This document shows, piece after piece, positions 29,094-64,000 of a stretch of 64,000 nt of DNA. The translations under genes and the position numbers were made by a program. Numbering within the stretch: the stretch's first letter is position 1; every line of letters begins with the position of its first letter. The stretch is from NCBI RefSeq assembly GCF_054482595.1, contig NZ_CM137008.1; one strand, given 5' to 3'. The notes beneath the pieces are model-generated. The model worked only from the letters and a program-made list of their open reading frames with translations, had not been told where the DNA came from and made no database searches.

Positions 29094-29298
29094 TATTACG
29101 ACGCTGACCTGGCGGACTGCTGCCGCCAGGTCAATATGCTAAAAATCCCTTCATTTCTAATAACCCTATAATTAATCAACGAAATTATAATGTTTCTAAA
29201 ATTAGAATATAATTTATAAACATTATTTAAATGTTGTTACTTAAGTGTTACCGTTGATGCCGCGCAAATCTCACCTGCAATAAAGCGACTAAAAGTAA

Positions 29299-52396: not shown

Positions 52397-52920
52397 TTTT
52401 TATTCTCCGGTGCTTTCGGCATTACTGCCCAGTGGGTAATATTGACGTTTTCAAGGTCCCCGACCTGAAATGTCCACTGCCATTCTCCGGTTTCTTTTTG
52501 CCCCCAATGTGTACCAGAGAGAACGCCAGCCAATCAGCCAGCCTTCTCCATTAGCATCAAATAACAGAACACTTTCATGTCTGTTTTGTAAAAAGGACGG
52601 TACCAGCCGGAAGCAAGGGTACAAGCTGGTACCTCCAAGACTACACACAGCATAAAGTTGTGGTGCCGGGTGCCTCCCGGTGCCTGGCGAAGGTTGCACA
52701 CCAGGCGGGTGGGTATCCACAGAAGGTCGACTGTCAGCCTCAACCTTTACCCGCGTGCGCTGAGCCGCATTCACCACAACGCTAAGGATTCTCTCTGGTT
52801 GAAAATACTTAGCTGTTATGTGCCTGCTTTTAGCCACATCAGGCGAGGTGGACCTAGTTATTCCCCAACAACAAGGATTTGGTTATTATGTAACCCTCCC
52901 CAACAACGATAAGGATTTAT

Positions 52921-53010
52921 ATGGAACGATGTGTAGATAAGTATGAGGAGAGGCATGTGCCGTTAAGGCAAAAGCCTCCAGTTCCTCCAAAACCACCCAA
53001 GGAAAACTGA
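52921..53010 (+). CDS. Putative 29-aa proline-rich leader peptide (MERCVDKYEERHVPLRQKPPVPPKPPKEN)
   Basis: AGGA RBS 5 nt upstream of ATG; stop 7 nt before the 164-aa ORF start; see findings. Confidence 0.35.
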   Translation: MERCVDKYEERHVPLRQKPPVPPKPPKEN

Positions 53011-53017
53011 GACTAAT

Positions 53018-53512
53018 ATGACCAGAGACGATTATAAATTTTATATTCACTACTCTTATGTATTGGAGAAGATGAATTACACGTTGTTAACTCGTATTGA
53101 TAAATTAATAACGTTGATGTTAATCGTTCTCGGTTTTTCAGTTTTCGCCCCGTACAGTAATTTATTTATTTTCGGTTTGTTTGTTGCCGTACTTTCGGTT
53201 CTTCAGTTGGTCTATCAGTTCGGCCAGGAGGCTGGGATGTCTAAAGAACAAGCGAGGCATTACAAAAGACTGCTGATTGAGTCTGATACTCTTTCTGAAG
53301 ATCAGTTGCAAGCTAGGTATTTAAAAATCCAAGATACCGATAGTAATCCATGGAAATCACTTGAACGAGCGGCTTTCATTCGGGCCTGCATTTTTGCTGG
53401 TGTTCCAACTAAGTACGATCTAACAACCAAAGAAAAATTTATTGCTTGGTGTGCGGGAGATCTACCTCTAGAGAATGAACTAACGGATATTAATGATGAC
53501 CAACAAGCATAA
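53018..53512 (+). CDS. Small membrane protein with two N-terminal TM helices; SieB-like position (superinfection exclusion candidate)
   Basis: 164 aa, AT-rich, hydrophobic segments LITLMLIVLGFSVFAPY and LFIFGLFVAVLSVLQLVY; sits between early-left region and cI on opposite strand. Confidence 0.65.
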   Translation: MTRDDYKFYIHYSYVLEKMNYTLLTRIDKLITLMLIVLGFSVFAPYSNLFIFGLFVAVLSVLQLVYQFGQEAGMSKEQARHYKRLLIESDTLSEDQLQARYLKIQDTDSNPWKSLERAAFIRACIFAGVPTKYDLTTKEKFIAWCAGDLPLENELTDINDDQQA

Positions 53513-53567
53513 TCCAGTTCACGGACATGTACCTCCGAAGCCGAAACCACCGAAACCGAAGAAATGA
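53496..53567 (+). CDS. Putative 23-aa proline-rich micro-ORF (MTNKHNPVHGHVPPKPKPPKPKK)
   Basis: ATG overlapping the 3' end of the 164-aa ORF; see findings. Confidence 0.3.
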   Translation: MTNKHNPVHGHVPPKPKPPKPKK

Positions 53568-53586
53568 GACATAATAGGATTGGATA

Positions 53587-53655
53587 ATGAGTCGACCAAT
53601 AGAGCCTTTTCATATTCCACCTCGTCCCAGGCCACCAGATCCAGGCCCAAAGTGA
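53587..53655 (+). CDS. Putative 22-aa proline-rich micro-ORF (MSRPIEPFHIPPRPRPPDPGPK)
   Basis: AGGA RBS 7 nt upstream; followed by terminator hairpin. Confidence 0.3.
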   Translation: MSRPIEPFHIPPRPRPPDPGPK

Positions 53656-53678
53656 GGGTTACTGATTTTTAAAGAGCG

Positions 53679-53703
53679 AAGCGTCCGGTAGGGCGCTTTT
53701 TTG
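53679..53703 (+). terminator. Rho-independent terminator closing the membrane-protein/micro-ORF unit
   Basis: AAGCGTCC-GGTA-GGGCGCTT hairpin (one G-U pair) followed by TTTTTT. Confidence 0.6.
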
Positions 53704-53817
53704 TTGCTAACGAATCATCTTGGACTTCATATGCCCCAGGCGGCTACTTCGTGAGCGTCCTGCCTGTTTGTTGTTTCTCTTGGGTACATTATGTATCTCA
53801 AAGGTACATTGTCAAGC

Positions 53818-53842
53818 ATAAAAAAACCTGCCGAAGCAGGTT
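53818..53842 (-). terminator. Rho-independent terminator downstream of cI
   Basis: Minus strand AACCTGC-TTCG-GCAGGTT followed by U-run. Confidence 0.65.
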
Positions 53843-53854
53843 CATAAACATTGA

Positions 53855-54529
53855 TTAGGCTTTGATTTTGTATCTTCTTGGTTTTCCTGAGAAAATCACA
53901 GTACCAATTATAGAGCAATTACCGTTGATCTTAATGTAAGGCTCAGGCCAGTTTGGGTTTAACGCTTTGAGATAACGCTGTGTCCCATCTTCTATCAACC
54001 TTTTGAAGGTGGTTTCACCTGTATCGTGCATCAATGCAATAACGTCGTCACCGTGGCAGGCAGGTACTTCAGGATCGACAAAAATCATGTCTCCCGGGCG
54101 GTACTCATCAATCATTGAATCACCTATCACCCGCAAGATATAAGTCATTTCCCCACAGGGTACAGGGCAGGGATACGTTTCTGCTGTGCTCAAATCAACC
54201 TCAGAATATCCAACTTCTTTCCATGCTCCGGCCTGTACCCATGATATGACAGGGACTAATGTGATTTGTTTATTAGTGATTGAAACATCAGGTTTTTTTG
54301 TGATGTTCGTTGTCTGGTGTTCTTGATCGAGCCATCCGACAGGCAGGTCGAAACATTTTTCGATGTGTCGTGCCATGCTGTCACCGATATTTTTAGTAGC
54401 ACCATCTCCCATAAACCTGCTGGTTTGGGTTGGCTCGCGATCAATCATAGTGGCAAAGGAAGAATTCCCGCCAACACCATCTCTCAGTTTTCTGGCGTTA
54501 GACCGCCGGATGTCATGGATTGTTTTCAT
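53855..54529 (-). CDS. Phage repressor CI-like (HTH plus S24 LexA-type autopeptidase domain)
   Basis: 224 aa; C-terminal ...VIGDSMIDEYRPGDMIFVDPE... S24 Ser/Lys peptidase signature; divergent from cro-like gene. Confidence 0.88.
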   Translation of the reverse strand: MKTIHDIRRSNARKLRDGVGGNSSFATMIDREPTQTSRFMGDGATKNIGDSMARHIEKCFDLPVGWLDQEHQTTNITKKPDVSITNKQITLVPVISWVQAGAWKEVGYSEVDLSTAETYPCPVPCGEMTYILRVIGDSMIDEYRPGDMIFVDPEVPACHGDDVIALMHDTGETTFKRLIEDGTQRYLKALNPNWPEPYIKINGNCSIIGTVIFSGKPRRYKIKA

Positions 54530-54544
54530 AACGAAATTAAAACC

Positions 54545-54565
54545 CTTGTACCGTTAAGGTACAAG
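54545..54565. promoter_or_regulatory. Operator-like perfect palindrome CTTGTACC-GTTAA-GGTACAAG in cI/cro intergenic
   Basis: Read directly; GGTAC(A) half-sites recur near 54607, 53776, 53800 and 52617. Confidence 0.6.
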
Positions 54566-54569
54566 TATC

Positions 54570-54597
54570 TTGAAGGTTCATTTTAATCATGTAATAT
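54570..54597 (+). promoter_or_regulatory. Candidate pR-like sigma70 promoter (TTGAAG-N16-TAATAT) for cro-like gene
   Basis: -35/-10 hexamers adjacent to operator palindrome, GGAGG RBS downstream. Confidence 0.5.
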
Positions 54598-54619
54598 GTA
54601 TACCGGAGGTACATATTGT

Positions 54620-54820
54620 ATGAAAGCGTATTGGGACTCTTTAACCAAAGAACAGCAGGGCGAGTTGGCCGGAAAAGTTGGCTCAACACCTGGCTACTTA
54701 CGGCTGGTTTTCAATGGCTATAAAAAAGCCAGTTTTGTGCTGGCTAAAAAACTTGAGCAATGCACGTCAGGTGCAATTACGAAATCTGACTTAAGACCGG
54801 ATATCTATCCGAAAGATTAG
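54620..54820 (+). CDS. Cro/YdaS-like small HTH regulator
   Basis: 66 aa from MKAYWDSL; position and size; ORF-track start 54596 lies upstream of predicted -10. Confidence 0.75.
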   Translation: MKAYWDSLTKEQQGELAGKVGSTPGYLRLVFNGYKKASFVLAKKLEQCTSGAITKSDLRPDIYPKD

Positions 54821-54851
54821 CAGAACACTTTCAATTTTTAACCACAGAACG

Positions 54852-55415
54852 ATGAGGCTAATCGTGGGTAAGCATCACTGGAAAATAGAAAAACAGCCTG
54901 AGTGGTACATGAAAGCTGTCAGAAAAACTATCGCGGCGTTGCCGGGTGGTTACGCTGAAGCCGCTGACTGGCTGGATGTAACAGAGAACGCATTATTTAA
55001 CCGCCTTCGTGCCGATGGCGATCAGATTTTCCCGCTGGGATGGGCAATGATTTTGCAACGTGCTGGTGGAACTCACTTCATTGCTGATGCTGTGGCGCAG
55101 TCTGCAAATGGCGTCTTTGTGTCTCTTCCTGACGTCGAGGATGTGGACAACGCCGATATTAACCAGCGTCTGCTGGAAGTCATTGAACAGATTGGCAGTT
55201 ATTCAAAACAGATTCGTTCAGCAATCGAAGACGGTGTAGTGGAACCGCATGAGAAGACAGCAATTAATGACGAGCTGTACCTCTCAATTTCGAAGCTGCA
55301 GGAGCATGCAGCACTGGTCTACAAAATTTTTTGCATTTCAGAAAGTAATGACGCCCGCGAGTGTGCAGCTCCGGGCGCCGTGGCGTGTCGTGACTGTGGA
55401 GAAACTAACGCATGA
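54852..55415 (+). CDS. Hypothetical early protein in CII/YdaT position (possibly CP76-type CII-like regulator)
   Basis: 187 aa ORF directly after cro-like gene; family assignment tentative. Confidence 0.6.
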
Positions 55416-55750
55416 ACAGTTTAACAACACATTACCGTCGCTCGCAACTGATTGCACTTCCTGTACCGGGTGGAAAAGCGAAGGTGGAGTATTGCTATGC
55501 AGTGAATGTACCAGGTGACAGGGAAATTGTAACCCACAGCTTTGCAGAGTGGGCTGTGGGCGATTTCAACCGGCAAAAGGAGACAGTCCTTTGCGACAAG
55601 TTAACCGCTGGTTCAAAGATCACTACGGAGTGCCCGTCAGAGTCATTCGTTGGGAGCCGGAAACACAACGGGTTATCTACCTCCGCGAAGGCTATGAGCA
55701 TGAGTGCTTCAGCCCGCTCGAACAGTTTCGTCGTAAATTCAGGGAAATAG
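55412..55750 (+). CDS. Hypothetical protein; overlaps alternative frame 55549..55770 (possible frameshift or overlapping genes)
   Basis: ATGA-coupled to upstream gene; second frame is ATGA-coupled to downstream replication gene. Confidence 0.4.
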
Positions 55751-55759
55751 AGGTCGGTC

Positions 55760-56701
55760 ATGAGCACTAAATTAACCGGCTATGTATGGGATGGTTGCGC
55801 TGCGTCAGGCATGAAGTTATCCAGCGTGGCAATTATGGCCCGCCTGGCTGATTTCAGTAATGACGAAGGTGTGTGCTGGCCATCAATTGAAACCATTGCC
55901 CGCCAGATTGGCGCGGGGATGAGCACCGTCAGAACGGCTATCGCACGGCTGGAAGCAGAAGGCTGGTTAACTCGTAAGGCGCGTCGCCAGGGTAACCGCA
56001 ATGCGTCGAATGTTTATCAGCTTAACGTTGCGAAGCTTCAGGCAGCGGCATTTTCTCAACTGTCAGATTCTGACCCGTCAAAATCTGACGCATCAAAATC
56101 TGACCCGTCAAAATTTGATGCGTCGAAATCTGGCAAAAAAGCGGGTTTTCACCCGTCAGAATCTGGCGGGGATCCGTCAGTAAAATCAAAACATGATCCG
56201 TCAGATAAAAAAAACTCTCGTCCGGACGCTTCGCAACCGGACACGCAGATGGATGAACAGGATTTTTTAACTCGCCATCCTGATGCGGTTGTATTCAGCC
56301 CTAAAAAGCGCCAGTGGGGGACGCAGGATGATTTGACCTGCGCACAGTGGCTCTGGAAAAAAATCATCGCCCTGTACGAGCAGGCTGCCGAATGTGACGG
56401 CGAGGTGGTTCGTCCCAAAGAACCGAACTGGACAGCCTGGGCAAACGAAATTCGCCTGATGTGTGTGCAGGATGGTCGTACTCACAAACAAATCTGCGAG
56501 ATGTACAGCCGCGTCAGCCGCGATCCGTTCTGGTGCCGTAACGTGCTCAGCCCGTCGAAGCTGCGGGAAAAATGGGATGAGCTTTCCCTGCGCTTATCGC
56601 CGTCCGTAAGCACGTACACCGAAAAACGCGAAGACCCGTACTTCAAATCCAGTTACGACAACGTGGACTACAGCCAGATCCCGGCAGGATTCAGGGGGTG
56701 A
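55760..56701 (+). CDS. Phage replication initiator (O-like, N-terminal winged-helix DNA-binding domain) containing iteron array
   Basis: 313 aa; N-terminal HTH-like region; internal SDSDPSKSDASKSDPSKFDASKSG repeats encoded by DNA direct repeats. Confidence 0.7.
   Translation: MSTKLTGYVWDGCAASGMKLSSVAIMARLADFSNDEGVCWPSIETIARQIGAGMSTVRTAIARLEAEGWLTRKARRQGNRNASNVYQLNVAKLQAAAFSQLSDSDPSKSDASKSDPSKFDASKSGKKAGFHPSESGGDPSVKSKHDPSDKKNSRPDASQPDTQMDEQDFLTRHPDAVVFSPKKRQWGTQDDLTCAQWLWKKIIALYEQAAECDGEVVRPKEPNWTAWANEIRLMCVQDGRTHKQICEMYSRVSRDPFWCRNVLSPSKLREKWDELSLRLSPSVSTYTEKREDPYFKSSYDNVDYSQIPAGFRG
56062..56215. repeat. Iteron-like direct repeats (~15-nt CGTCA(A/G)AATCTGAC units, about 8 copies): candidate phage replication origin
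   Basis: Tandem near-identical units read directly inside replication gene, as in lambda O/ori. Confidence 0.6.
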
Positions 56702-57192
56702 TCATGAGTCTTTTGAATGACGTTCAGAAATTCATTGAAGCCCATCCGGGGTGTACTTCCGGAGACATTGCGGATGCTTTTGCTGGTTACTCACGGCAGC
56801 GCGTTCTGCAGTCAGCAAGCAAGTTACGTCAGAGTGGGCGTGTGGCTCACCGTTGTGAAGGGGATACACGCAGACATTTCCCGCGCCTGACTGAGAGAGC
56901 GCAGGAACTGGAACCACAACCAGTTCGAGAAACCAGATCTGTGCGCAATTTCTATGTCGGCACTAACGATCCCCGGGTGATTTTGTGCCTGACCCGCCAG
57001 GCTGAAAAACTGGAGTCCAGGGGCTTATACCGTCGTGCTGCAACGGTGTGGATGGCGGCATTCCGTGAAAGCCACTCCCAGCCAGAACGAAACAATTTTC
57101 TGGCGCGTCGTGAGCAGTGTTTACGGAAAAGCAGCAAGCGCGCTGTATCGAGTGATGAGTGGTATCTGTCAGGGAATTACGTGGGGGCGTAA
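56698..57192 (+). CDS. Hypothetical phage protein (tentative PerC/ANR-like C-terminal motif)
   Basis: 164 aa ORF coupled to neighbours; motif LESRGLYRRAATVWMAAF; no Walker motif so not a DnaC-type loader. Confidence 0.55.
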   Translation: MIMSLLNDVQKFIEAHPGCTSGDIADAFAGYSRQRVLQSASKLRQSGRVAHRCEGDTRRHFPRLTERAQELEPQPVRETRSVRNFYVGTNDPRVILCLTRQAEKLESRGLYRRAATVWMAAFRESHSQPERNNFLARREQCLRKSSKRAVSSDEWYLSGNYVGA

Positions 57193-57518
57193 TGACGACG
57201 TTAACTCAATGCCAGCAGCAGGTGCTGGATATGCTGATTTCTTATCAGAAAGAGCGTGGCTTTCCGCCAACCAATCAGGAGGTGGCAACCATGCTGGGAT
57301 ACCGTTCAGTGAATGCAGCGGTAGAGCATCTTCGCGCACTGGAGAAAAAAGGCGTCATCACGATAAAGCGTGGCGTGGCCCGGGGGATAACGCTTCATAC
57401 CGCGGTGAAGGACGACGACAGCGAGGCGGTCGGGATTATCCGCGCACTGCTTGCCGGTGAGGAAAACGCAAGGCTGCGTGCAACCCACTGGTTACATGAG
57501 AGGGGCCTGAAAGTATGA
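57192..57518 (+). CDS. LexA N-terminal DNA-binding domain protein (no peptidase domain)
   Basis: QQQVLDMLISYQKERGFPPTNQEVATMLGYRSVNAAVEHLRALEKKGVI parallels LexA N-terminal winged helix (QQEVFDLI...GMPPTRAEIA...[21 protein letters not shown]). Confidence 0.75.
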   Translation: MTTLTQCQQQVLDMLISYQKERGFPPTNQEVATMLGYRSVNAAVEHLRALEKKGVITIKRGVARGITLHTAVKDDDSEAVGIIRALLAGEENARLRATHWLHERGLKV

Positions 57519-57904
57519 AGCTGATCCTGCCTTTTCCGCCCAGCGTGAACACGTACTGGCGACACCCCAACAAAGGGGCGTTTGCTGGTAAGAGCCTGAT
57601 AAGCGCGGCGGGGCGAAAATTCCAGAGCGCGGCGTGTGCAGCAATAGTTGAGCAGTTACGTCGTCTGCCGAAACCAACGTCGGCACCTGCTTCAGTGGAG
57701 ATCGTGTTGTTTCCTCCGGATAACCGGATCCGCGATCTGGACAACTATAACAAGGCGCTGTTTGACGCCCTGACCCACGCGGGTGTGTGGGAAGACGACA
57801 GCCAGGTGAAAAGAATGTTGGTGGAGTGGGGACCGGTTATCCCGGAAGGGAAGGTCGAGATCACTATCAGTAAGTACGAGAAAACGGCGGGTGCAGCCGC
57901 CTGA
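57515..57904 (+). CDS. rusA: Holliday junction resolvase RusA
   Basis: 129 aa; LPFPPSVNTYWRH...DLDNYNKALFDALT motif typical of RusA. Confidence 0.88.
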   Translation: MKLILPFPPSVNTYWRHPNKGAFAGKSLISAAGRKFQSAACAAIVEQLRRLPKPTSAPASVEIVLFPPDNRIRDLDNYNKALFDALTHAGVWEDDSQVKRMLVEWGPVIPEGKVEITISKYEKTAGAAA

Positions 57905-57923
57905 TCAAGAGGAGAAACGAAGT

Positions 57924-58721
57924 ATGAATAATCTGATGGTCATTGATGGTATTGAAGTTCGTCGTGATGCTTATGGGCGTTACAGCCTGAACGATCTGCA
58001 CAGGGCTGCCGGTTCTCTGGATAAGCATAAGCCTGCATTCTGGCTCCGCAATGAGCAAACTGAACGTTTAATAAGCGAGTTGCAGATTTGCAACTCGGTC
58101 AATATAGAGCCAGTTAACGTTATTCGCGGCGGAAATAATCAGGGGACGTATGTCTGTAAGGAACTGGTGTATGCCTATGCAATGTGGATCAGCCCGTCAT
58201 TCCATCTGAAGGTGATCCGTACTTTCGACATGGTAACCAGCGCACCGGAAAAATTATCCGGACAGGCTGCTGACAAGATGCAGGCTGGAGTGATTCTGCT
58301 GGACTTTATGCGTCGGGAGTTAAACCTGTCTAACTCATCTGTGCTTGGGGCCTGTCAAAAACTCCAGGAGGCTGTTGGCTTACCGAATCTGGCACCGCGC
58401 TATGCCATTGATGCTCCTGCTGATGCACACGATGGCTCAAGTCGCCCCACGCTGTCGCTGAGTGCACTGCTGAAGCAGTATGGTATCCGCCTGACGGCTA
58501 ATCAGGCATATCACCAGATGGTGAAGCTGGGGATCGTTGAACAACGCGAACGATACAGCCGTACCGCGATTAACAACATCAAAAAATTCTGGTCGCTGAC
58601 AGCGAAAGGCTGCATGTTCGGCAAGAACATCACCAGTCCCGCAAATCCGCGCGAGACGCAGCCGCATTTCTTCGAATCCCGATTCCCTGAGCTGTTAAAG
58701 CTGCTCGATACCGTTCATTGA
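57924..58721 (+). CDS. KilA-N domain protein (antirepressor-like)
   Basis: MNNLMVIDGIEVRRDAYGRYSLNDLHRAAG...KPAFWLRNEQT N-terminal KilA-N signature. Confidence 0.75.
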   Translation: MNNLMVIDGIEVRRDAYGRYSLNDLHRAAGSLDKHKPAFWLRNEQTERLISELQICNSVNIEPVNVIRGGNNQGTYVCKELVYAYAMWISPSFHLKVIRTFDMVTSAPEKLSGQAADKMQAGVILLDFMRRELNLSNSSVLGACQKLQEAVGLPNLAPRYAIDAPADAHDGSSRPTLSLSALLKQYGIRLTANQAYHQMVKLGIVEQRERYSRTAINNIKKFWSLTAKGCMFGKNITSPANPRETQPHFFESRFPELLKLLDTVH

Positions 58722-58722
58722 G

Positions 58723-59718
58723 GTGACCGTGAGAGCACTACTGACCCCTGAAATTGCCCCGCGTATGGGGATCGTATTGTTCAGACCAGGTTCAGAACTG
58801 ATGCCCCTGTTTATGCAGGGGCGTGTCCTGCTGGAGCCTGAGCCGGAACGTTATTCATCTTTCGCCAGTGGTGCCGTTCCGGCAGCATCACAACCGCTGG
58901 CGGATGATCCTGCCGTTCGGGCCGTGTTCCGCAATGAGGCAGTGATCCGTCGTGCTGGTGGCGTGGAATGTCTTGAAAGCTGGTTACTTCGTGAAAAAGG
59001 CTGTCAGTGGCCTCACTCCGACTGGCACAGCGAAAACATGACCACAACGCGCCATGCGCCGGGCGCAATCCGTCTGTGCTGGCACTGCGATAACCAGTTG
59101 CGTGACCAGTTCACGGAACGGCTGGAATCAATGGCAACGGATAACTGTGCCCGCTGGGTGTTATCTGTTGTGCGCCGTGATCTCGGTTTTGATGATAGTC
59201 ACGTTGTGACAATGCCGGAACTGTGCTGGTGGCTGGTTCGTAATGACCTGGCGGATGCCTTACCGGAAAGTGCAGCCCGTAAGGCACTGAGATTACCGAA
59301 GCCTGTTGTGCCGTCTGTCACCCGGGAAAGTGACCTTGTTCCTTCGGTTCCTGCCACCAGCATCATCCAGGATAAGGCGAAAAAGGTGCTGGCGCTGAAA
59401 GTGGATCCGGAGTCACCGGAGTCTTTTATGTTACGCCCAAAACGTCGCCGCTGGGTTAATGAAAAGTACACGCGCTGGGTTAAGACACAGCCGTGTGCAT
59501 GTTGTGGAAAGCCCGCTGATGATCCCCACCACCTGATAGGCCATGGTCAGGGTGGAATGGGGACAAAAGCGCATGACCTCTTTGTGTTGCCTTTGTGCAG
59601 AAAGCATCACGACGAGCTGCATGCGGATACCGTGGCATTTGAAGAGATGTATGGCTCCCAGCTGGAGCTGATATTTCGTTTTATCGATCGTGCGCTGGCA
59701 ATTGGTGTGCTGGCCTGA
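58723..59718 (+). CDS. DUF968-family phage protein (YdfU-like)
   Basis: 331 aa; C-terminal Cys/His-rich CACCGKPADDPHHLIGHGQGGMGTKAHDLFVLPLCRKHHDELH. Confidence 0.7.
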   Translation: MTVRALLTPEIAPRMGIVLFRPGSELMPLFMQGRVLLEPEPERYSSFASGAVPAASQPLADDPAVRAVFRNEAVIRRAGGVECLESWLLREKGCQWPHSDWHSENMTTTRHAPGAIRLCWHCDNQLRDQFTERLESMATDNCARWVLSVVRRDLGFDDSHVVTMPELCWWLVRNDLADALPESAARKALRLPKPVVPSVTRESDLVPSVPATSIIQDKAKKVLALKVDPESPESFMLRPKRRRWVNEKYTRWVKTQPCACCGKPADDPHHLIGHGQGGMGTKAHDLFVLPLCRKHHDELHADTVAFEEMYGSQLELIFRFIDRALAIGVLA

Positions 59719-59720
59719 TT

Positions 59721-60083
59721 TTGTGGAGAAAGTTGATGCGTGATATGTATGAAGTAATGGATCGTTGGGGAGCTTGGGCTGCTTCAGACAATAGCGGAGT
59801 GGACTGGCAACCGGTAGCCGCTGGCTTCAAGGGACTTTTACCTCATGGCAAAAAGTCCCGGATTCAGTGTGATGATGACGAAGGCATTATGATAGACAGT
59901 TGTGTGGCTCGGTTGCGTAAATATAGGCCTGAAGAATATGAGCTAATCATTGCTCACTTTGTTATCGGTATCTCATTACGCACTATTGCGAAGAAGAGAA
60001 AATGCTCTGATGGGACTATAAGAAAAAAGTTGCAAGCTGCATTGGGATTTATTGATGCAGTTATATATATAATACATGGGTAA
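59721..60083 (+). CDS. Late-gene antiterminator Q (QuuD-type)
   Basis: 120 aa; DRWGAWAA...AAGFKGLL...KSR.QCDDD...CSDG... closely parallels QuuD-family Q proteins. Confidence 0.85.
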   Translation: MWRKLMRDMYEVMDRWGAWAASDNSGVDWQPVAAGFKGLLPHGKKSRIQCDDDEGIMIDSCVARLRKYRPEEYELIIAHFVIGISLRTIAKKRKCSDGTIRKKLQAALGFIDAVIYIIHG

Positions 60084-60090
60084 TTTATTA

Positions 60091-60109
60091 GACGGCCATA
60101 TTGGCCGTC
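60091..60109. terminator. Palindromic hairpin GACGGCC-ATATT-GGCCGTC between convergent Q and the antisense cassette
   Basis: Perfect 7-bp inverted repeat overlapping the cassette stop codon; no strong U-run. Confidence 0.4.
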
Positions 60110-61295
60110 AGCTAAATAAATATGTAATAGCATAAGGTGTAAGTAAAAAGTAGAATCTAAATGTAAGATATAAGCCACATAAAACTATAATTCCTAATGA
60201 GGCAAAAACAACTTTCTGAACAAGCAATCTTGTGGTTAAACTATCAAATGTATCCTTTATATCTTCGTAAATAGCCTTGAAGTTATATTCTGCTTGTTGT
60301 TTTTTATGATTTAACTCATCATTTATTGCTGTTAAAGTTTGCCATTGATTAAATAGAACAAATATAATCATAATAGTGAAGAACAATGCACCCAACACTA
60401 CAGCTGTGTTTATTAATGCTTGACTATCCCAACCATTAGCCTGCTTCATTTGAGTCGCAACGATAATTGTTGCGACGGGGATACCTAATATCTGATTTTG
60501 TATGTCACTGAATACTTTATGTATTTTCCCCATCTCTTCTATTTTGGCTACTCGTAACTGATCTAGTATTTTCTCGTAAGAAAAACCAGAAACGAATACT
60601 TTGTATCCTTTTTGATAACTTTCATAAAGTTGTCCTAAATCCCTTAACATGAAGGAAAAAGAGGTTTCTTTAGTTTTAGATTCACATGATGATTTTATAC
60701 TACTTGCTAAAATAGTAAGTTTTTGATCTTTATGCGTATCTTCTGCAAAGTTTGCGATCAAATTATGAATCAGATCTCCATTAACATTCATAAGATCATC
60801 GCTAGAATAATTTACTGGAATTTTTAGTACGTTGGATTCGACGAATACCAATTCAAAATTTGTTTCATCTAAATAAGCAGAACAATCTTTGAATAAAGTA
60901 ATTAAGCTCAAAACATCTCTGTACTTGGATATAATAGCAGGCGACTTTTTATCCCTGTTGTGATAATTAAGTTCGATTATAAAGAAGTTACTGGCTTCCT
61001 TTATCCTATTTTTAGGATTTTTTAAATACTCATTAAAAGAGAAATGTAGCTGCCCCAATCGTAATTTGGGGGGGGTTATATGTAAGGTTATAGTTTGGCC
61101 TAACTCAATGTTGCCAGATTCAAGGGTGATGCCAAAATCATGGGGATTCTCTGTGATATCGTTGATGATGTCACAGAGCTCCTCGTTTGAAAGAATGAGT
61201 GATGCTTCAGATAGGGTACCTGCAAATGTAGCGGCCTTGTAAATAGTCACTAAGTCTTTGAAGGTTCTCTGGTTTTTACTGCTCATCCTCTTCAC
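60108..61295 (-). CDS. Hypothetical 395-aa protein with two C-terminal TM helices; downstream gene of antisense two-gene moron
   Basis: Clean AT-rich ORF; hydrophobic segments ALINTAVVLGALFFTIMIIFVLF and VVFASLGIIVLCGLYLTFRFYFLL; overlaps upstream gene by 20 nt. Confidence 0.75.
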   Translation of the reverse strand: MKRMSSKNQRTFKDLVTIYKAATFAGTLSEASLILSNEELCDIINDITENPHDFGITLESGNIELGQTITLHITPPKLRLGQLHFSFNEYLKNPKNRIKEASNFFIIELNYHNRDKKSPAIISKYRDVLSLITLFKDCSAYLDETNFELVFVESNVLKIPVNYSSDDLMNVNGDLIHNLIANFAEDTHKDQKLTILASSIKSSCESKTKETSFSFMLRDLGQLYESYQKGYKVFVSGFSYEKILDQLRVAKIEEMGKIHKVFSDIQNQILGIPVATIIVATQMKQANGWDSQALINTAVVLGALFFTIMIIFVLFNQWQTLTAINDELNHKKQQAEYNFKAIYEDIKDTFDSLTTRLLVQKVVFASLGIIVLCGLYLTFRFYFLLTPYAITYLFS

Positions 61296-62310
61296 CTAAT
61301 TCTGATAAAATCTCTGATCTTAGCGTATCCGGAATCTCGGTAAGTATCAATTTATCGTTTTCTGAATCATAAAGAACGCTGCCATCATGCAAGGCCGCAC
61401 GCTCGAATTTCAGAGACCAATGTTTGGACTTTCCTTTGAAACTAACAAGCCCACGTATAACGTTGCCATCAGGCACGAACCCATCAGAGAACTCCAGATC
61501 GTCATTGGTTAACTTTTCAACTAACAACTCAGGAGCAGTTGGCCATATCTCGTTTGCAAAAATTTGAGTGTCGAAAGTTTCACCAGAACGATTTAAATTT
61601 TTTAATTTTTCATGAGCCTTATTTAGGAACTCTTCACGTGCCTCTGGTTCAAAACCTCTTTCAGTAGCAAATTCTAAAAGTGCATTCCGTAATTTTGTTG
61701 TTTCTTGTTTGGCAATTAGAATATCGTTGCAACCTAAAAACTTTTTGAAATAACCTGCTACTGAATTTTGCCCCTTTAGAAAGCTAATATATCTCTCTTT
61801 GCCATTCTGGCGCCCAGTTAAGTCAATTCGTCCCGCTACTCGAAGTTTAGCAATGTCTAGATATTCACTTTCTTGAATTTCAAAATCGTGGACTGAAGAG
61901 CCAACTGCTGAAGTTAGGATTGCAACCATCAAATAATGATTTCCATTTACCTCATTATGGGCAATTATTACATAACCACCAGTAGACATTGATTCATCAT
62001 CGGCTCTGGCTTTTAAATGATTGATCATTCGGATACTAGTATCATAAAAACTATGTGTTTTATTTACGAAATAATCATCAACGATATTACCCATAGGGTA
62101 ACTATCGCGGTCATCTTCAAATTTCCCATATCCTTTACCTGCTCTCCCAGAGTACCTTTCAGTAAGTGCGTTAGAGAGGTCTTTTGATGCTTGCTGAACA
62201 GGTTTTTCTGAAGGACAAGGAATAATGGTGGCTAACCCCTGTTGTTCCTTGTTCATAATGTGAACAATAAACTTATGAGTGATATTAGTGGGGGTCGCTG
62301 ATGCAGTCAT
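61276..62310 (-). CDS. Divergent NdpA/YejK-family (NA37) nucleoid-associated-like protein, prophage-encoded
   Basis: 344 aa; blocks GGYVIIAHNEV..YLMVAIL, GRIDLTGRQNGKERYISFLKGQ..VAGYFKKFLG parallel host YejK ([51 protein letters not shown]); RBS AGGA upstream. Confidence 0.75.
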   Translation of the reverse strand: MTASATPTNITHKFIVHIMNKEQQGLATIIPCPSEKPVQQASKDLSNALTERYSGRAGKGYGKFEDDRDSYPMGNIVDDYFVNKTHSFYDTSIRMINHLKARADDESMSTGGYVIIAHNEVNGNHYLMVAILTSAVGSSVHDFEIQESEYLDIAKLRVAGRIDLTGRQNGKERYISFLKGQNSVAGYFKKFLGCNDILIAKQETTKLRNALLEFATERGFEPEAREEFLNKAHEKLKNLNRSGETFDTQIFANEIWPTAPELLVEKLTNDDLEFSDGFVPDGNVIRGLVSFKGKSKHWSLKFERAALHDGSVLYDSENDKLILTEIPDTLRSEILSELGEEDEQ

Positions 62311-62426
62311 AACAACATCCTTTTAATGGTTTTGAACAATTGGTGTTGATAATACTTCAAAAAATACTAATGCGTACGCAAAAAATACAGTACTCTGTTA
62401 AGAGTGGTTACTTCGCCACACAGCTT

Positions 62427-62456
62427 AAACCCGCCGTTGAGCGGGTTTTGTCGTTT
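62427..62456 (+). terminator. tR'-like Rho-independent terminator upstream of lysis genes
   Basis: AACCCGC-CGTTGA-GCGGGTT hairpin followed by TTGTCGTTT. Confidence 0.6.
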
Positions 62457-62600
62457 CTGGGGCTGGGGATTCGTTGGTCCTGGTCTATTCCGCAGTTATC
62501 CATTGGTTCGGCTTCTTTGACGTTTCCGCTTCTAATTTGCTGTACATGATGTTCCCTCAATTTGCACCTGCTGTATCAGCGAGGTGAGAGATAACTACAA

Positions 62601-62927
62601 ATGCCTCATAACCCAAATACCTGGCTGGAGTTGGTCCAGAGCTGGTGGCGTGGAGACACACCACTGGGCGCAGTGATTATGTCGATCGTTATGGCTGGCT
62701 TGCGCATTGCCTATTTTGGCGGTGGTGGTGGCTGGAAGCGAAAAACGCTTGAGATTTTACTCTGTGGCGCTCTGACGCTGACATTTGCATCCGCGCTTGA
62801 GTATGTCGGATGGCCTAAATCACTATCTGTTGCCATTGGTGGTGGGGTGGGGCTGATCGGTGTCGATGCTATTCGTGGGGCTGCAATGCGAGTAATCGGT
62901 AACAAGTTTGGTGGCTCTAAGGAGTAA
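62601..62927 (+). CDS. Holin (class I, S-like)
   Basis: 108 aa, three hydrophobic segments, Gly-rich, immediately upstream of endolysin. Confidence 0.8.
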   Translation: MPHNPNTWLELVQSWWRGDTPLGAVIMSIVMAGLRIAYFGGGGGWKRKTLEILLCGALTLTFASALEYVGWPKSLSVAIGGGVGLIGVDAIRGAAMRVIGNKFGGSKE

Positions 62928-62930
62928 TTT

Positions 62931-63407
62931 ATGCAGGTACTAAATTCCCAGCGTAAAGCTTTTCTCGATATGTTGGCGTGGTCAGAAGGAACGGATAACG
63001 GGCGACAGCCAACCCGCAATCACGGCTACGACGTTATTGTAGGTGGTGAGCTATTCACGGATTACTCCGATCATCCTCGCAAACTTGTCACGCTAAACCC
63101 GCAACTTAAATCAACCGCAGCTGGACGTTACCAGCTTCTTTCCCGTTGGTGGGATGCCTACCGCAAGCAGCTTGGCCTGAAAGACTTCTCTCCGAAAAAC
63201 CAGGACGCTGTTGCACTGCAGCAGATTAAGGAGCGTGGCGCTTTACCGATGATTGATCGCGGTGATATCCGTCAGGCTATCGACCGTTGCAGCAATATCT
63301 GGGCTTCACTGCCGGGCGCTGGTTATGGCCAGTTCGAGCATAAGGCTGACAGCCTGATTGCAAAATTCAAAGAAGCAGGCGGAACGGTCAGAGAGATTGA
63401 GGTATGA
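62931..63407 (+). CDS. R: Endolysin R (lambda-type lytic transglycosylase)
   Basis: 158 aa near-identical to lambda R as recalled ([48 protein letters not shown]...). Confidence 0.95.
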
Positions 63408-63865
63408 GCAGATTAACCGCGATTATCTCCGCTCTGCTCATCTGCATCATCGTCTGCATGTCATTGGCTGTTAATCATTATCGTGATAACGCCATTACCT
63501 ACAAAGCCCAGCGCGACAAAAATGCCAGAGAACTGAAGCTGGCGAACGCGGCAATTACTGACATGCAGGTGCGCCAACGTGATGTCGCTGCGCTCGATGC
63601 AAAATACACGAAGGAGTTAGCTGATGCGAAAGCTGAAAATGATGCTCTGCGTGATGATGTTGCCGCTGGTCGTCGTCGGTTGCACATCAAAGCAGTCTGT
63701 CAGTCAGTGCGTGAAGCCACCACCGCCTCCGGCATGGATAATGCAGCCTCCCCCCGACTGGCAGACACCGCTGAACGGGATTATTTCACTCTCAGAGAGA
63801 GGCTGATCACTATGCAAAAACAACTGGAAGGAACCCAGAAGTATATTAATGAGCAGTGCAGATAG
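63404..63865 (+). CDS. Rz: i-spanin Rz
   Basis: 153 aa near-identical to lambda Rz; N-terminal TM. Confidence 0.95.
63624..63806 (+). CDS. Rz1: o-spanin Rz1 (embedded in Rz, +1 frame)
   Basis: 60 aa lipoprotein [22 protein letters not shown]... with PPPPP tract, nested in Rz. Confidence 0.9.
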
Positions 63866-64000
63866 AGCTGCCCATATCGATGGGCAACTCATGCAATTAT
63901 TGTGAGCAATACACCCGCGCTTCCAGCGGAGTATAAATGCCTAAAGTAATAAAACCGAGCAATCCATTTACGAATGTTTGCTGGGTTTCTGTTTTAACAA

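Follow-up and report, generated by a model that had tools for sequence, protein, structure and literature searches.

We analysed a stretch of 64,000 nucleotides from contig NZ_CM137008.1 (NCBI RefSeq assembly GCF_054482595.1), referred to below as the window. It contains a prophage, and in the early operon of this prophage lies a small gene which encodes a LexA DNA-binding domain with no S24 peptidase domain attached. The gene and the parts of its product are given below with the evidence for each (ORF, open reading frame; dN/dS, ratio of nonsynonymous to synonymous substitution rates; AF2, AlphaFold2).

57192..57518, + strand: gene of the protein with only the LexA DNA-binding domain (WP_000210156.1; phrog_362); from the ORF, RefSeq, Pfam PF01726, phrog_362 and dN/dS
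57192..57395, + strand: LexA-type winged helix-turn-helix, residues 1-68; from AF2, Foldseek to 3JSO and phmmer to 1LEA/1JHH
57306..57347, + strand: recognition helix, residues 39-52, SVNAAVEHLRALEK; from alignment to E. coli LexA, the contacts in PMC3091678 and family counts
57414..57500, + strand: family-specific helical hairpin, residues 75-103; from AF2, conservation and dN/dS 0.07

The ORF is intact and runs on the + strand from an ATG at 57192 to a stop codon at 57516-57518. With 108 codons plus the stop, it encodes 108 amino acids and not the 109 given in the first-pass annotation, which had been made from the sequence alone. A Shine-Dalgarno-like GGGGG lies 5-9 nt 5' of the ATG. RefSeq places an identical protein, WP_000210156.1, at identical coordinates under the name "LexA family transcriptional regulator"; the source of this annotation is E. 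coli strain 50EVA (NZ_CP138412.1), to which the last 13.6 kb of the window are 100% identical.

Domain identity, conservation and spread of the protein

The protein matches the Pfam family LexA_DNA_bind (PF01726) with an E-value of 2.9e-19 over all 65 profile positions (1-65), and phrog_362 ('transcriptional repressor') from end to end (E 1.2e-59; residues 1-108 against profile positions 1-106 of 106). In a phmmer search of the PDB, E. coli LexA was matched at E 6e-16, where residues 2-70 fall on residues 2-70 of LexA in identical numbering and with ~50% identity. AF2, given 16 family sequences, produced a model (mean predicted local distance difference test score, pLDDT, 82.5) that contains the elements of a winged helix, namely helices 6-22, 28-35 and 40-52 and strands 56-58 and 66-68, at pLDDT 79-88, and Foldseek superposed this model on DNA-bound LexA (3JSO) with a root-mean-square deviation of 1.0 Å over 67-68 residues at 50-51% identity. 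Thus, the similarity to the N-terminal winged helix of LexA, which the first-pass annotation had proposed to check by a profile search, is a clear profile match that is also found by phmmer and in structure, far beyond chance. Peptidase_S24 (PF00717), on the other hand, gave no match in this protein, in the same scan in which the cI repressor of the prophage was matched at 1.5e-26, and the score against the lexA equivalog TIGR00498 was 70.5 bits, under the cut-off of 110.95. The protein carries LexA's DNA-binding domain without being a LexA proper, and it is wrong to call this gene "SOS-response repressor and protease LexA" or "RecA-mediated autopeptidase", as has been done.

A retained LexA cleavage site was considered and rejected. 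HMMER placed 'LLAGEE' on 'VAAGEP' of LexA, so that AG at residues 88-89 aligns with A84-G85. This pair is not conserved, being AG in 7 of 57 distinct family sequences and AE, AD, DD, HN and others elsewhere, and the protease domain is absent. Membership in a defence system was likewise rejected, since the weak match to a CARF-associated winged helix returned by PADLOC (E 3.6e-4) was judged to be generic fold similarity.

The first-pass annotation held that the protein ends where the S24 domain would begin. It was right that no S24 domain follows, but what does follow is a linker predicted to be disordered (residues 69-75, AF2 pLDDT <50) and then a conserved hairpin of two helices (residues 75-88 and 93-103, pLDDT ~86). 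This hairpin had been overlooked, as had the wide existing annotation of the gene. The tail is kept in relatives from Escherichia, Salmonella, Citrobacter and Hafnia and persists in homologues of 39-48% identity. It has no significant similarity to the C-terminal domain of LexA, and fold searches of PDB and BFVD gave no match to it. We infer that the hairpin is a module for dimerisation or for binding of a partner. Six metagenomic proteins from outside the window (P0151, P0153, P0156, P0159, P0163 and P0132; ~160-220 amino acids) have two LexA DNA-binding domains in tandem and lack S24; such proteins would be natural 'single-chain dimers', another answer to a lost dimerisation domain.

The DNA contacts of helix 3 in E. 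coli LexA are S39, N41, A42, E44 and E45 (PMC3091678). Four of these five, S39, N41, A42 and E45, are kept in the window protein, and position 44 is V instead of E. None of S39, N41, H46, K53, R64 and G65 varies among the 57 distinct family sequences, and A42 hardly does.

Relatives of the gene were taken from two sets of loci. The close set (group A) comprises 80 IMG/VR loci (L011-L090) with 98-100% identical copies, and the distant set (group B) comprises 80 loci (L091-L170) found with distant members as seeds, in which there are 46 distinct proteins. The distant branch is ~40% identical to the window protein and has Klebsiella phages among its members. Pairwise Nei-Gojobori dN/dS, for which the pairs are non-independent and the figures therefore rough, is 0.04 overall among close relatives (DNA-binding domain ~0, tail 0.07) and 0.19 overall in the distant branch (DNA-binding domain 0.17, tail 0.28). 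The gene is under strong purifying selection, the hairpin tail included.

Of 5426 complete E. coli genomes, 2232 (~40%) have the gene; intact copies with at least 80% coverage were counted in 2221, nearly all at 95-100% identity. The gene is also found in phages SfII, SfV, SfIV, mEp460, mEp390 and cdtI and in the Shiga toxin (Stx) phages of types Stx2a and Stx2c. The phage records label it variously, with "LexA DNA binding domain protein" at one extreme and "SOS-response repressor and protease LexA" at the other. Annotations of the gene are already common, and its kind is known, as many LexA DNA-binding domains that lack S24 have been annotated in phages. In the published full texts that were searched, we found no experimental or functional study of the enterobacterial family. 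The 'LexA family transcriptional regulator' in a paper on Stx-phage replication refers to cI-type repressors and so not to this family, and a paper on STM14_3218-3220 of Gifsy-1 proved unrelated to it.

The early operon of the prophage and the operon of the distant branch

The prophage is ~38 kb long, is SfII/SfV/e14-like and adjoins tRNA-Pro and yejM. The prophage setting assumed in the first-pass annotation was confirmed by the presence of an integrase, an S24-type cI, cro, cII, a replication gene, RusA, KilA-N, DUF968, Q and lysis genes. The main features around the LexA-domain gene are as follows.

53855..54529, - strand: S24-type cI-like repressor ymfK; from Pfam Peptidase_S24 1.5e-26 and annotation
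55760..56701, + strand: replication initiator (HTH_36/DnaD-like) with iteron-like repeats inside; from Pfam and inverted repeats I2 and I6
56698..57192, + strand: yfdN, winged helix-turn-helix plus PerC-like activator; from Pfam PerC 6.5e-10, phrog_1324 and annotation
57515..57904, + strand: rusA Holliday-junction resolvase; from Pfam RusA 6.1e-15
57924..58721, + strand: KilA-N domain (antirepressor-like) gene; from Pfam KilA-N 2.4e-26 and annotation
58723..59718, + strand: DUF968/HNH-like gene of the same conserved module; from Pfam DUF968 8.2e-81
59736..60083, + strand: antiterminator Q, end of the early-right operon; from Pfam Phage_antitermQ 1.9e-44 and annotation

The early-right order is ymfK on the opposite strand, cro-like ymfT, cII-like ymfL, DUF4222, the replication initiator, yfdN, the LexA-domain gene, rusA, KilA-N, DUF968 and Q. 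Cleavage of S24-type cI repressors by activated RecA (RecA*) is established, and through the S24-type ymfK, the early-right operon is coupled in its expression to RecA*-mediated induction; therefore, the operon would be switched on by RecA* exactly when host LexA is cleaved. Beside the LexA-domain gene, we found neither a promoter-like site on the + strand nor a convincing terminator-like site, and delayed-early expression is therefore expected once cI is inactivated. The TAA stop of yfdN and the ATG of the LexA-domain gene share 1 nt, and the stop of the latter overlaps the ATG of rusA by 4 nt (ATGA), an offset of -3 which is seen in 75/75 close loci. Judging from this overlap, the LexA-domain gene is translationally coupled to rusA. 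DUF968 lies downstream in 62/63 close and 72/72 distant-branch loci. Relatives of 39-52% identity keep the order LexA-domain gene, RusA, DUF968 and antiterminator, and the replication modules ahead of this order differ (HTH_36/Phg_2220_C, DUF1376 with lambda-P, or DnaT with a DnaC-like protein).

In the distant branch, the operon consists of an SOS box, a dinI homologue, phrog_1813, the LexA-domain gene, phrog_1212 and DUF968, followed by a Q-type antiterminator where one was recognised (14/72 loci; seen in L155). Examples are L155 7302-9900, L008 5560-8413 and L010 5561-8195. A near-consensus SOS box (e.g. TACTGTTTATTTATACAGTA) is located at a constant distance, 437-531 nt upstream of the ORF, in 59/80 distant loci, just past a sigma-70-like -35/-10 pair, and an SOS box is found within 3 kb upstream in 70/80. 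The dinI homologue (PF06183, 5e-25) is within 1.5 kb upstream in 59/72 loci, and phrog_1212 is directly next to the LexA-domain gene, with a 4-nt overlap, in 79/80. phrog_1813 has no Pfam match, and its phage homologues are all annotated as 'hypothetical'; it might be an antirepressor. An uncleavable LexA domain placed together with DinI, a modulator of RecA*, behind an SOS box would fit a self-regulating module for SOS damping or reset.

Several features of the neighbourhood were observed in addition. Inside the initiator gene, iteron-like inverted repeats at 56062-56124 (GTCAGATTCTGAC, GTCAAAATCTGAC, and others) likely mark the phage origin, as in lambdoid O genes. YfdN has an N-terminal MarR-like winged helix (phrog_1687, residues 7-61) and a C-terminal PerC-like activator region, so that two small putative regulators, YfdN and the LexA-domain protein, stand back to back in the early operon. 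At the junction of their genes (57189-57195), the window is without a dam methylase gene of ~650 bp that is found there in most relatives; by the yfdN offset, dam is present in ~51 of the 80 close IMG/VR loci, and the dam-less spacing of the window in 14. A query spanning this junction split into two aligned pieces in every listed phage match. The products of a two-gene moron (60108-62310, - strand) between Q and the lysis cassette are a nucleoid-associated protein of the NA37/YejK-like type (PF04245, 8e-69) and a 395-amino-acid protein without a Pfam match. L155 has a similar pair at this position, and the two could be an exclusion or defence pair; neither gene was found in PADLOC.

Possible function at SOS boxes and alternative explanations

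We consider it possible, with a probability of about 0.4, that the protein is a RecA-insensitive binder of SOS-box-like operators which is made in lytic growth while host LexA is destroyed. In this scheme, the gene product would be a functional, sequence-specific DNA-binding protein. RecA* would cleave the S24-type cI, the PR operon (replication gene, yfdN, the LexA-domain gene, rusA, KilA-N, DUF968 and Q) would then be transcribed, and the protein would be made together with RusA. The hairpin would dimerise the protein, the dimer would sit on SOS-box-like operators with CTGT-type half-sites, and the absence of S24 would make it insensitive to RecA*. It could then fill promoters vacated by LexA and re-repress them while the SOS signal persists. 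Candidate targets would be host SOS genes and, in its own or co-resident prophages, genes under LexA control, among them dinI-like genes and antirepressors. Here we infer dimerisation, SOS-box specificity, the direction of regulation and the physiological targets. An SOS-type half-site is plausible for the window protein because S39, N41, A42 and E45 are kept, albeit not guaranteed family-wide. The idea of the first-pass annotation that the protein could bind SOS boxes non-cleavably is a reasonable hypothesis. It gains from the distant branch, in which the gene lies behind an SOS box together with a dinI homologue. Two further points in its favour are that, as counted in these carriers of the gene, 61/80 close-relative loci have at least one strong SOS box within ±8 kb, and that the SOS box was the sole palindrome returned by a search across divergent loci. 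A further-reaching proposal is that the protein acts after commitment as an 'anti-SOS' stand-in for LexA, which would silence the host SOS regulon, as well as LexA-controlled antirepressors and dinI operons in rival or related prophages, even while RecA* persists, and which in the Klebsiella-type branch would exert negative feedback on its own operon. On the sequences at hand, we regard this proposal as rather unlikely.

Several observations weigh against SOS-box binding. In the window there is no perfect CTGT-N8-ACAG and no site scoring at least 15 with our own weight matrix of E. coli SOS boxes, only weak matches at chance level. Across the complete prophage, the sole good SOS boxes (scores 12.5 and 19.2) lie ~31 kb from the gene and outside the window, and none is present in loci L002 and L007. 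In the recognition helix, none of the 57 distinct family sequences has Glu at position 44. At position 45, Glu is found in 8/8 close relatives, 2/3 intermediate ones and 12/46 distant-branch proteins, with Leu in 32/46 of the last; specificity may therefore have drifted, as has happened in gp6 of phage GIL01. The SOS box of the distant branch could serve host LexA alone. And, when two copies of the protein were modelled in tandem by AF2 (30-residue Gly/Ser linker, paired alignment), the predicted template modelling score was 0.34 and the pLDDT of the tail dropped.

The SOS boxes of the close relatives were found in three places: in the linker codons of cI, in the gap between rusA and KilA-N, and at the start of an N6/N4 methyltransferase gene. 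The first is a perfect box (TACTGTTTTTATATACAGTA or variants) inside the coding region for the HTH_3+S24 cI, 209 nt from the start of the gene and in the interdomain linker, as in L005 (SfII) 29167-29186, where it forms the codons for NTVYKNSNN, in L001 836-855 and in ~25 of L011-L090. Its arms are constant and its spacer variable, which suggests selection on the box itself. The methyltransferase box (T/CACTGTAAAAATAAACAGTG) covers codons 3-9 of the N6/N4 DNA methyltransferase gene after Q (MKNTVKINSV...), as in L016 4604-4623, L010 8739-8758 and ~30 of L011-L090, and the phage methylase may thus be under LexA control. The remaining box, TACTGTATTTATGAACAGTG, is in the rusA/KilA-N intergenic region in 10 of L011-L090 (L013 5640-5659, for example) and would place the antirepressor-like KilA-N gene under LexA control; the corresponding gap in the window (57904-57924) is 19 nt long and holds no SOS box. 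At the prophage's right end (L006 39316-39593), a frameshifted dinI-like pseudogene stands behind two SOS-like boxes, TACTGCGTTTGTAGACAGTA and ATCTGTGTAAATAAACAGTA.

Alternatively, the protein may be a phage-specific transcription factor with a diverged operator, which would activate or repress phage genes, for example near Q, at the late promoter or in morons, and would not act on SOS boxes. [quoted passage not shown] The change at position 44 throughout the family and at position 45 in most of the distant branch, the location of the gene in a regulatory early-right operon shortly upstream of Q, and the lack of an SOS box near it in the prophage of the window would all agree with this explanation. 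However, an unbiased search for palindromes common to 7 divergent loci returned no non-SOS palindrome, but only ACTGT-N8-ACAGT, in 4/7 (absent in the window, L002 and L007). Nor did the inverted repeats in 52500-64000, which are ori iterons, terminators and coding palindromes, include a candidate for a private operator. Moreover, S39, N41 and A42 are invariant or nearly so, and the module moves among phages that differ in their replication, immunity and late regions, which speaks against a fixed phage-specific target. On balance, a factor with a private phage operator is a doubtful but realistic alternative.

The constant neighbourhood also allows for an accessory factor of a recombination module, recruiting or regulating the RusA resolvase or the DUF968 nuclease on phage DNA. 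This would explain the invariable ATGA coupling to rusA in close loci, the adjacency of RusA in relatives of 39-49% identity, and the retention of downstream DUF968 across differing replication modules. However, the neighbour in the distant branch is phrog_1212, RusA of the L008 type was detected in only 7/80 loci there, and in L007 a reverse-strand gene separates the LexA-domain gene from RusA. The synteny may just reflect the conserved gene order of the nin region, and the kept base-contact residues of LexA point to sequence-specific binding. We therefore consider such an accessory role improbable.

In the first-pass annotation it was suggested that the protein could titrate or heterodimerise with LexA. 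Small phage proteins that act on LexA are known, e.g. gp7 of GIL01 (PMC6182141), which is a general precedent only, and the hairpin in the AF2 model is a plausible protein-binding element. The window protein carries the winged helix followed by an unrelated tail. The C-terminal domain of LexA holds the dimer interface, as seen in crystal structures, and the RecA* contacts, and a heterodimer with LexA is unlikely because the window protein has no counterpart of that domain. The AG pair aligned to A84-G85 is rare in the family, and a pure protein binder would not need invariant base-contact residues. Modulation of SOS by protein contact with host LexA or RecA is thus very improbable. Finally, a decaying, functionless remnant of a captured lexA, as might be suggested by the look of a LexA truncation and by an HMMER alignment that reaches residue 90, is effectively refuted by a dN/dS of 0.04, the intact ORF in ~40% of E. 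coli genomes, conservation of the tail down to ~40% identity and the tight operon coupling.

If SOS-box binding is true, ~40% of sequenced E. coli would carry a gene able to override the RecA-LexA switch in prophage induction, with lysogens of Stx2a, Stx2c and Shigella serotype-converting phages among the carriers. This would bear on SOS mutagenesis and persistence after treatment with DNA-damaging antibiotics, on the induction hierarchy of co-resident prophages, and on the timing of Shiga-toxin phages. If the operator is private, the protein would be an ordinary small phage regulator, and the value of the finding would lie mainly in correcting the annotation. The family is very widespread.

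Comparison with known systems

The protein resembles E. coli LexA (TIGR00498; 1LEA, 1JHH, 3JSO) in its N-terminal fold, its numbering, most helix-3 contacts, and R64 and G65 of the wing. Unlike LexA, it has no S24 domain, no Ser119/Lys156 and no conserved Ala-Gly site, so that its dimerisation would need another basis. It is also encoded in a phage operon, whereas E. coli LexA is autoregulated behind its own SOS boxes. With the N-terminal fragment of LexA (residues 1-84) it shares the kind of molecule, that is, a DNA-binding domain without the C-terminal domain. The free fragment retains residual repressor activity and weak operator binding. Cleavage lowers the DNA affinity of LexA and opens the fragments to ClpXP and Lon (PMC3159453). 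Whereas the N-terminal fragment ends in ...VAA, a degron by which ClpXP removes it, the window protein ends in ...RGLKV after its hairpin, and may be stable and dimeric, unlike the LexA fragment.

Winged-helix repressors of the BlaI/MecI and MarR types share the layout of a winged helix plus helices, by analogy only. The Foldseek matches to Rv1846c and MepR were weak (E ~0.02-0.04), and the tail had no significant match to such repressors. Gifsy prophages contain LexA-controlled operons of dinI and an antirepressor (PMC3121763), and the distant branch has the same layout downstream of the replication genes, with a terminator region, an SOS box, a dinI homologue and a small protein. In contrast, the gene in the window has no SOS box or dinI upstream. 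The third Gifsy gene, irsA, was tried as a homologue of the LexA-domain gene and rejected, as a family member used as tblastn query found nothing in Gifsy when phage genomes were searched.

The closest characterised analogue is GIL01 gp6, which was compared by its published description; a Foldseek search of BFVD gave distant tectiviral proteins with a LexA DNA-binding domain at E 8.5e-3. Both gp6 and the window protein are LexA winged helices of temperate phages without S24, both are made after induction, and both are ~44-50% identical to host LexA's DNA-binding domain. However, gp6 is essentially the bare domain, whereas the window protein adds a conserved 30-residue hairpin, and gp6, which depends on K38, recognises a non-LexA site, whereas the window protein keeps S39, N41, A42 and E45. 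They also differ in setting. gp6 belongs to a Bacillus tectivirus and the window protein to an enterobacterial lambdoid/SfV-like prophage, in a family that lies in the nin region coupled to rusA and whose distant branch is tied to an SOS-box/dinI operon. If the protein does act as an 'anti-SOS' stand-in for LexA, this would be a phage function comparable in spirit to that of plasmid PsiB or GIL01 gp7. If it binds SOS-box-like operators, it would be a second phage reuse of LexA's DNA-binding domain besides gp6, here with a dimerisation module of its own.

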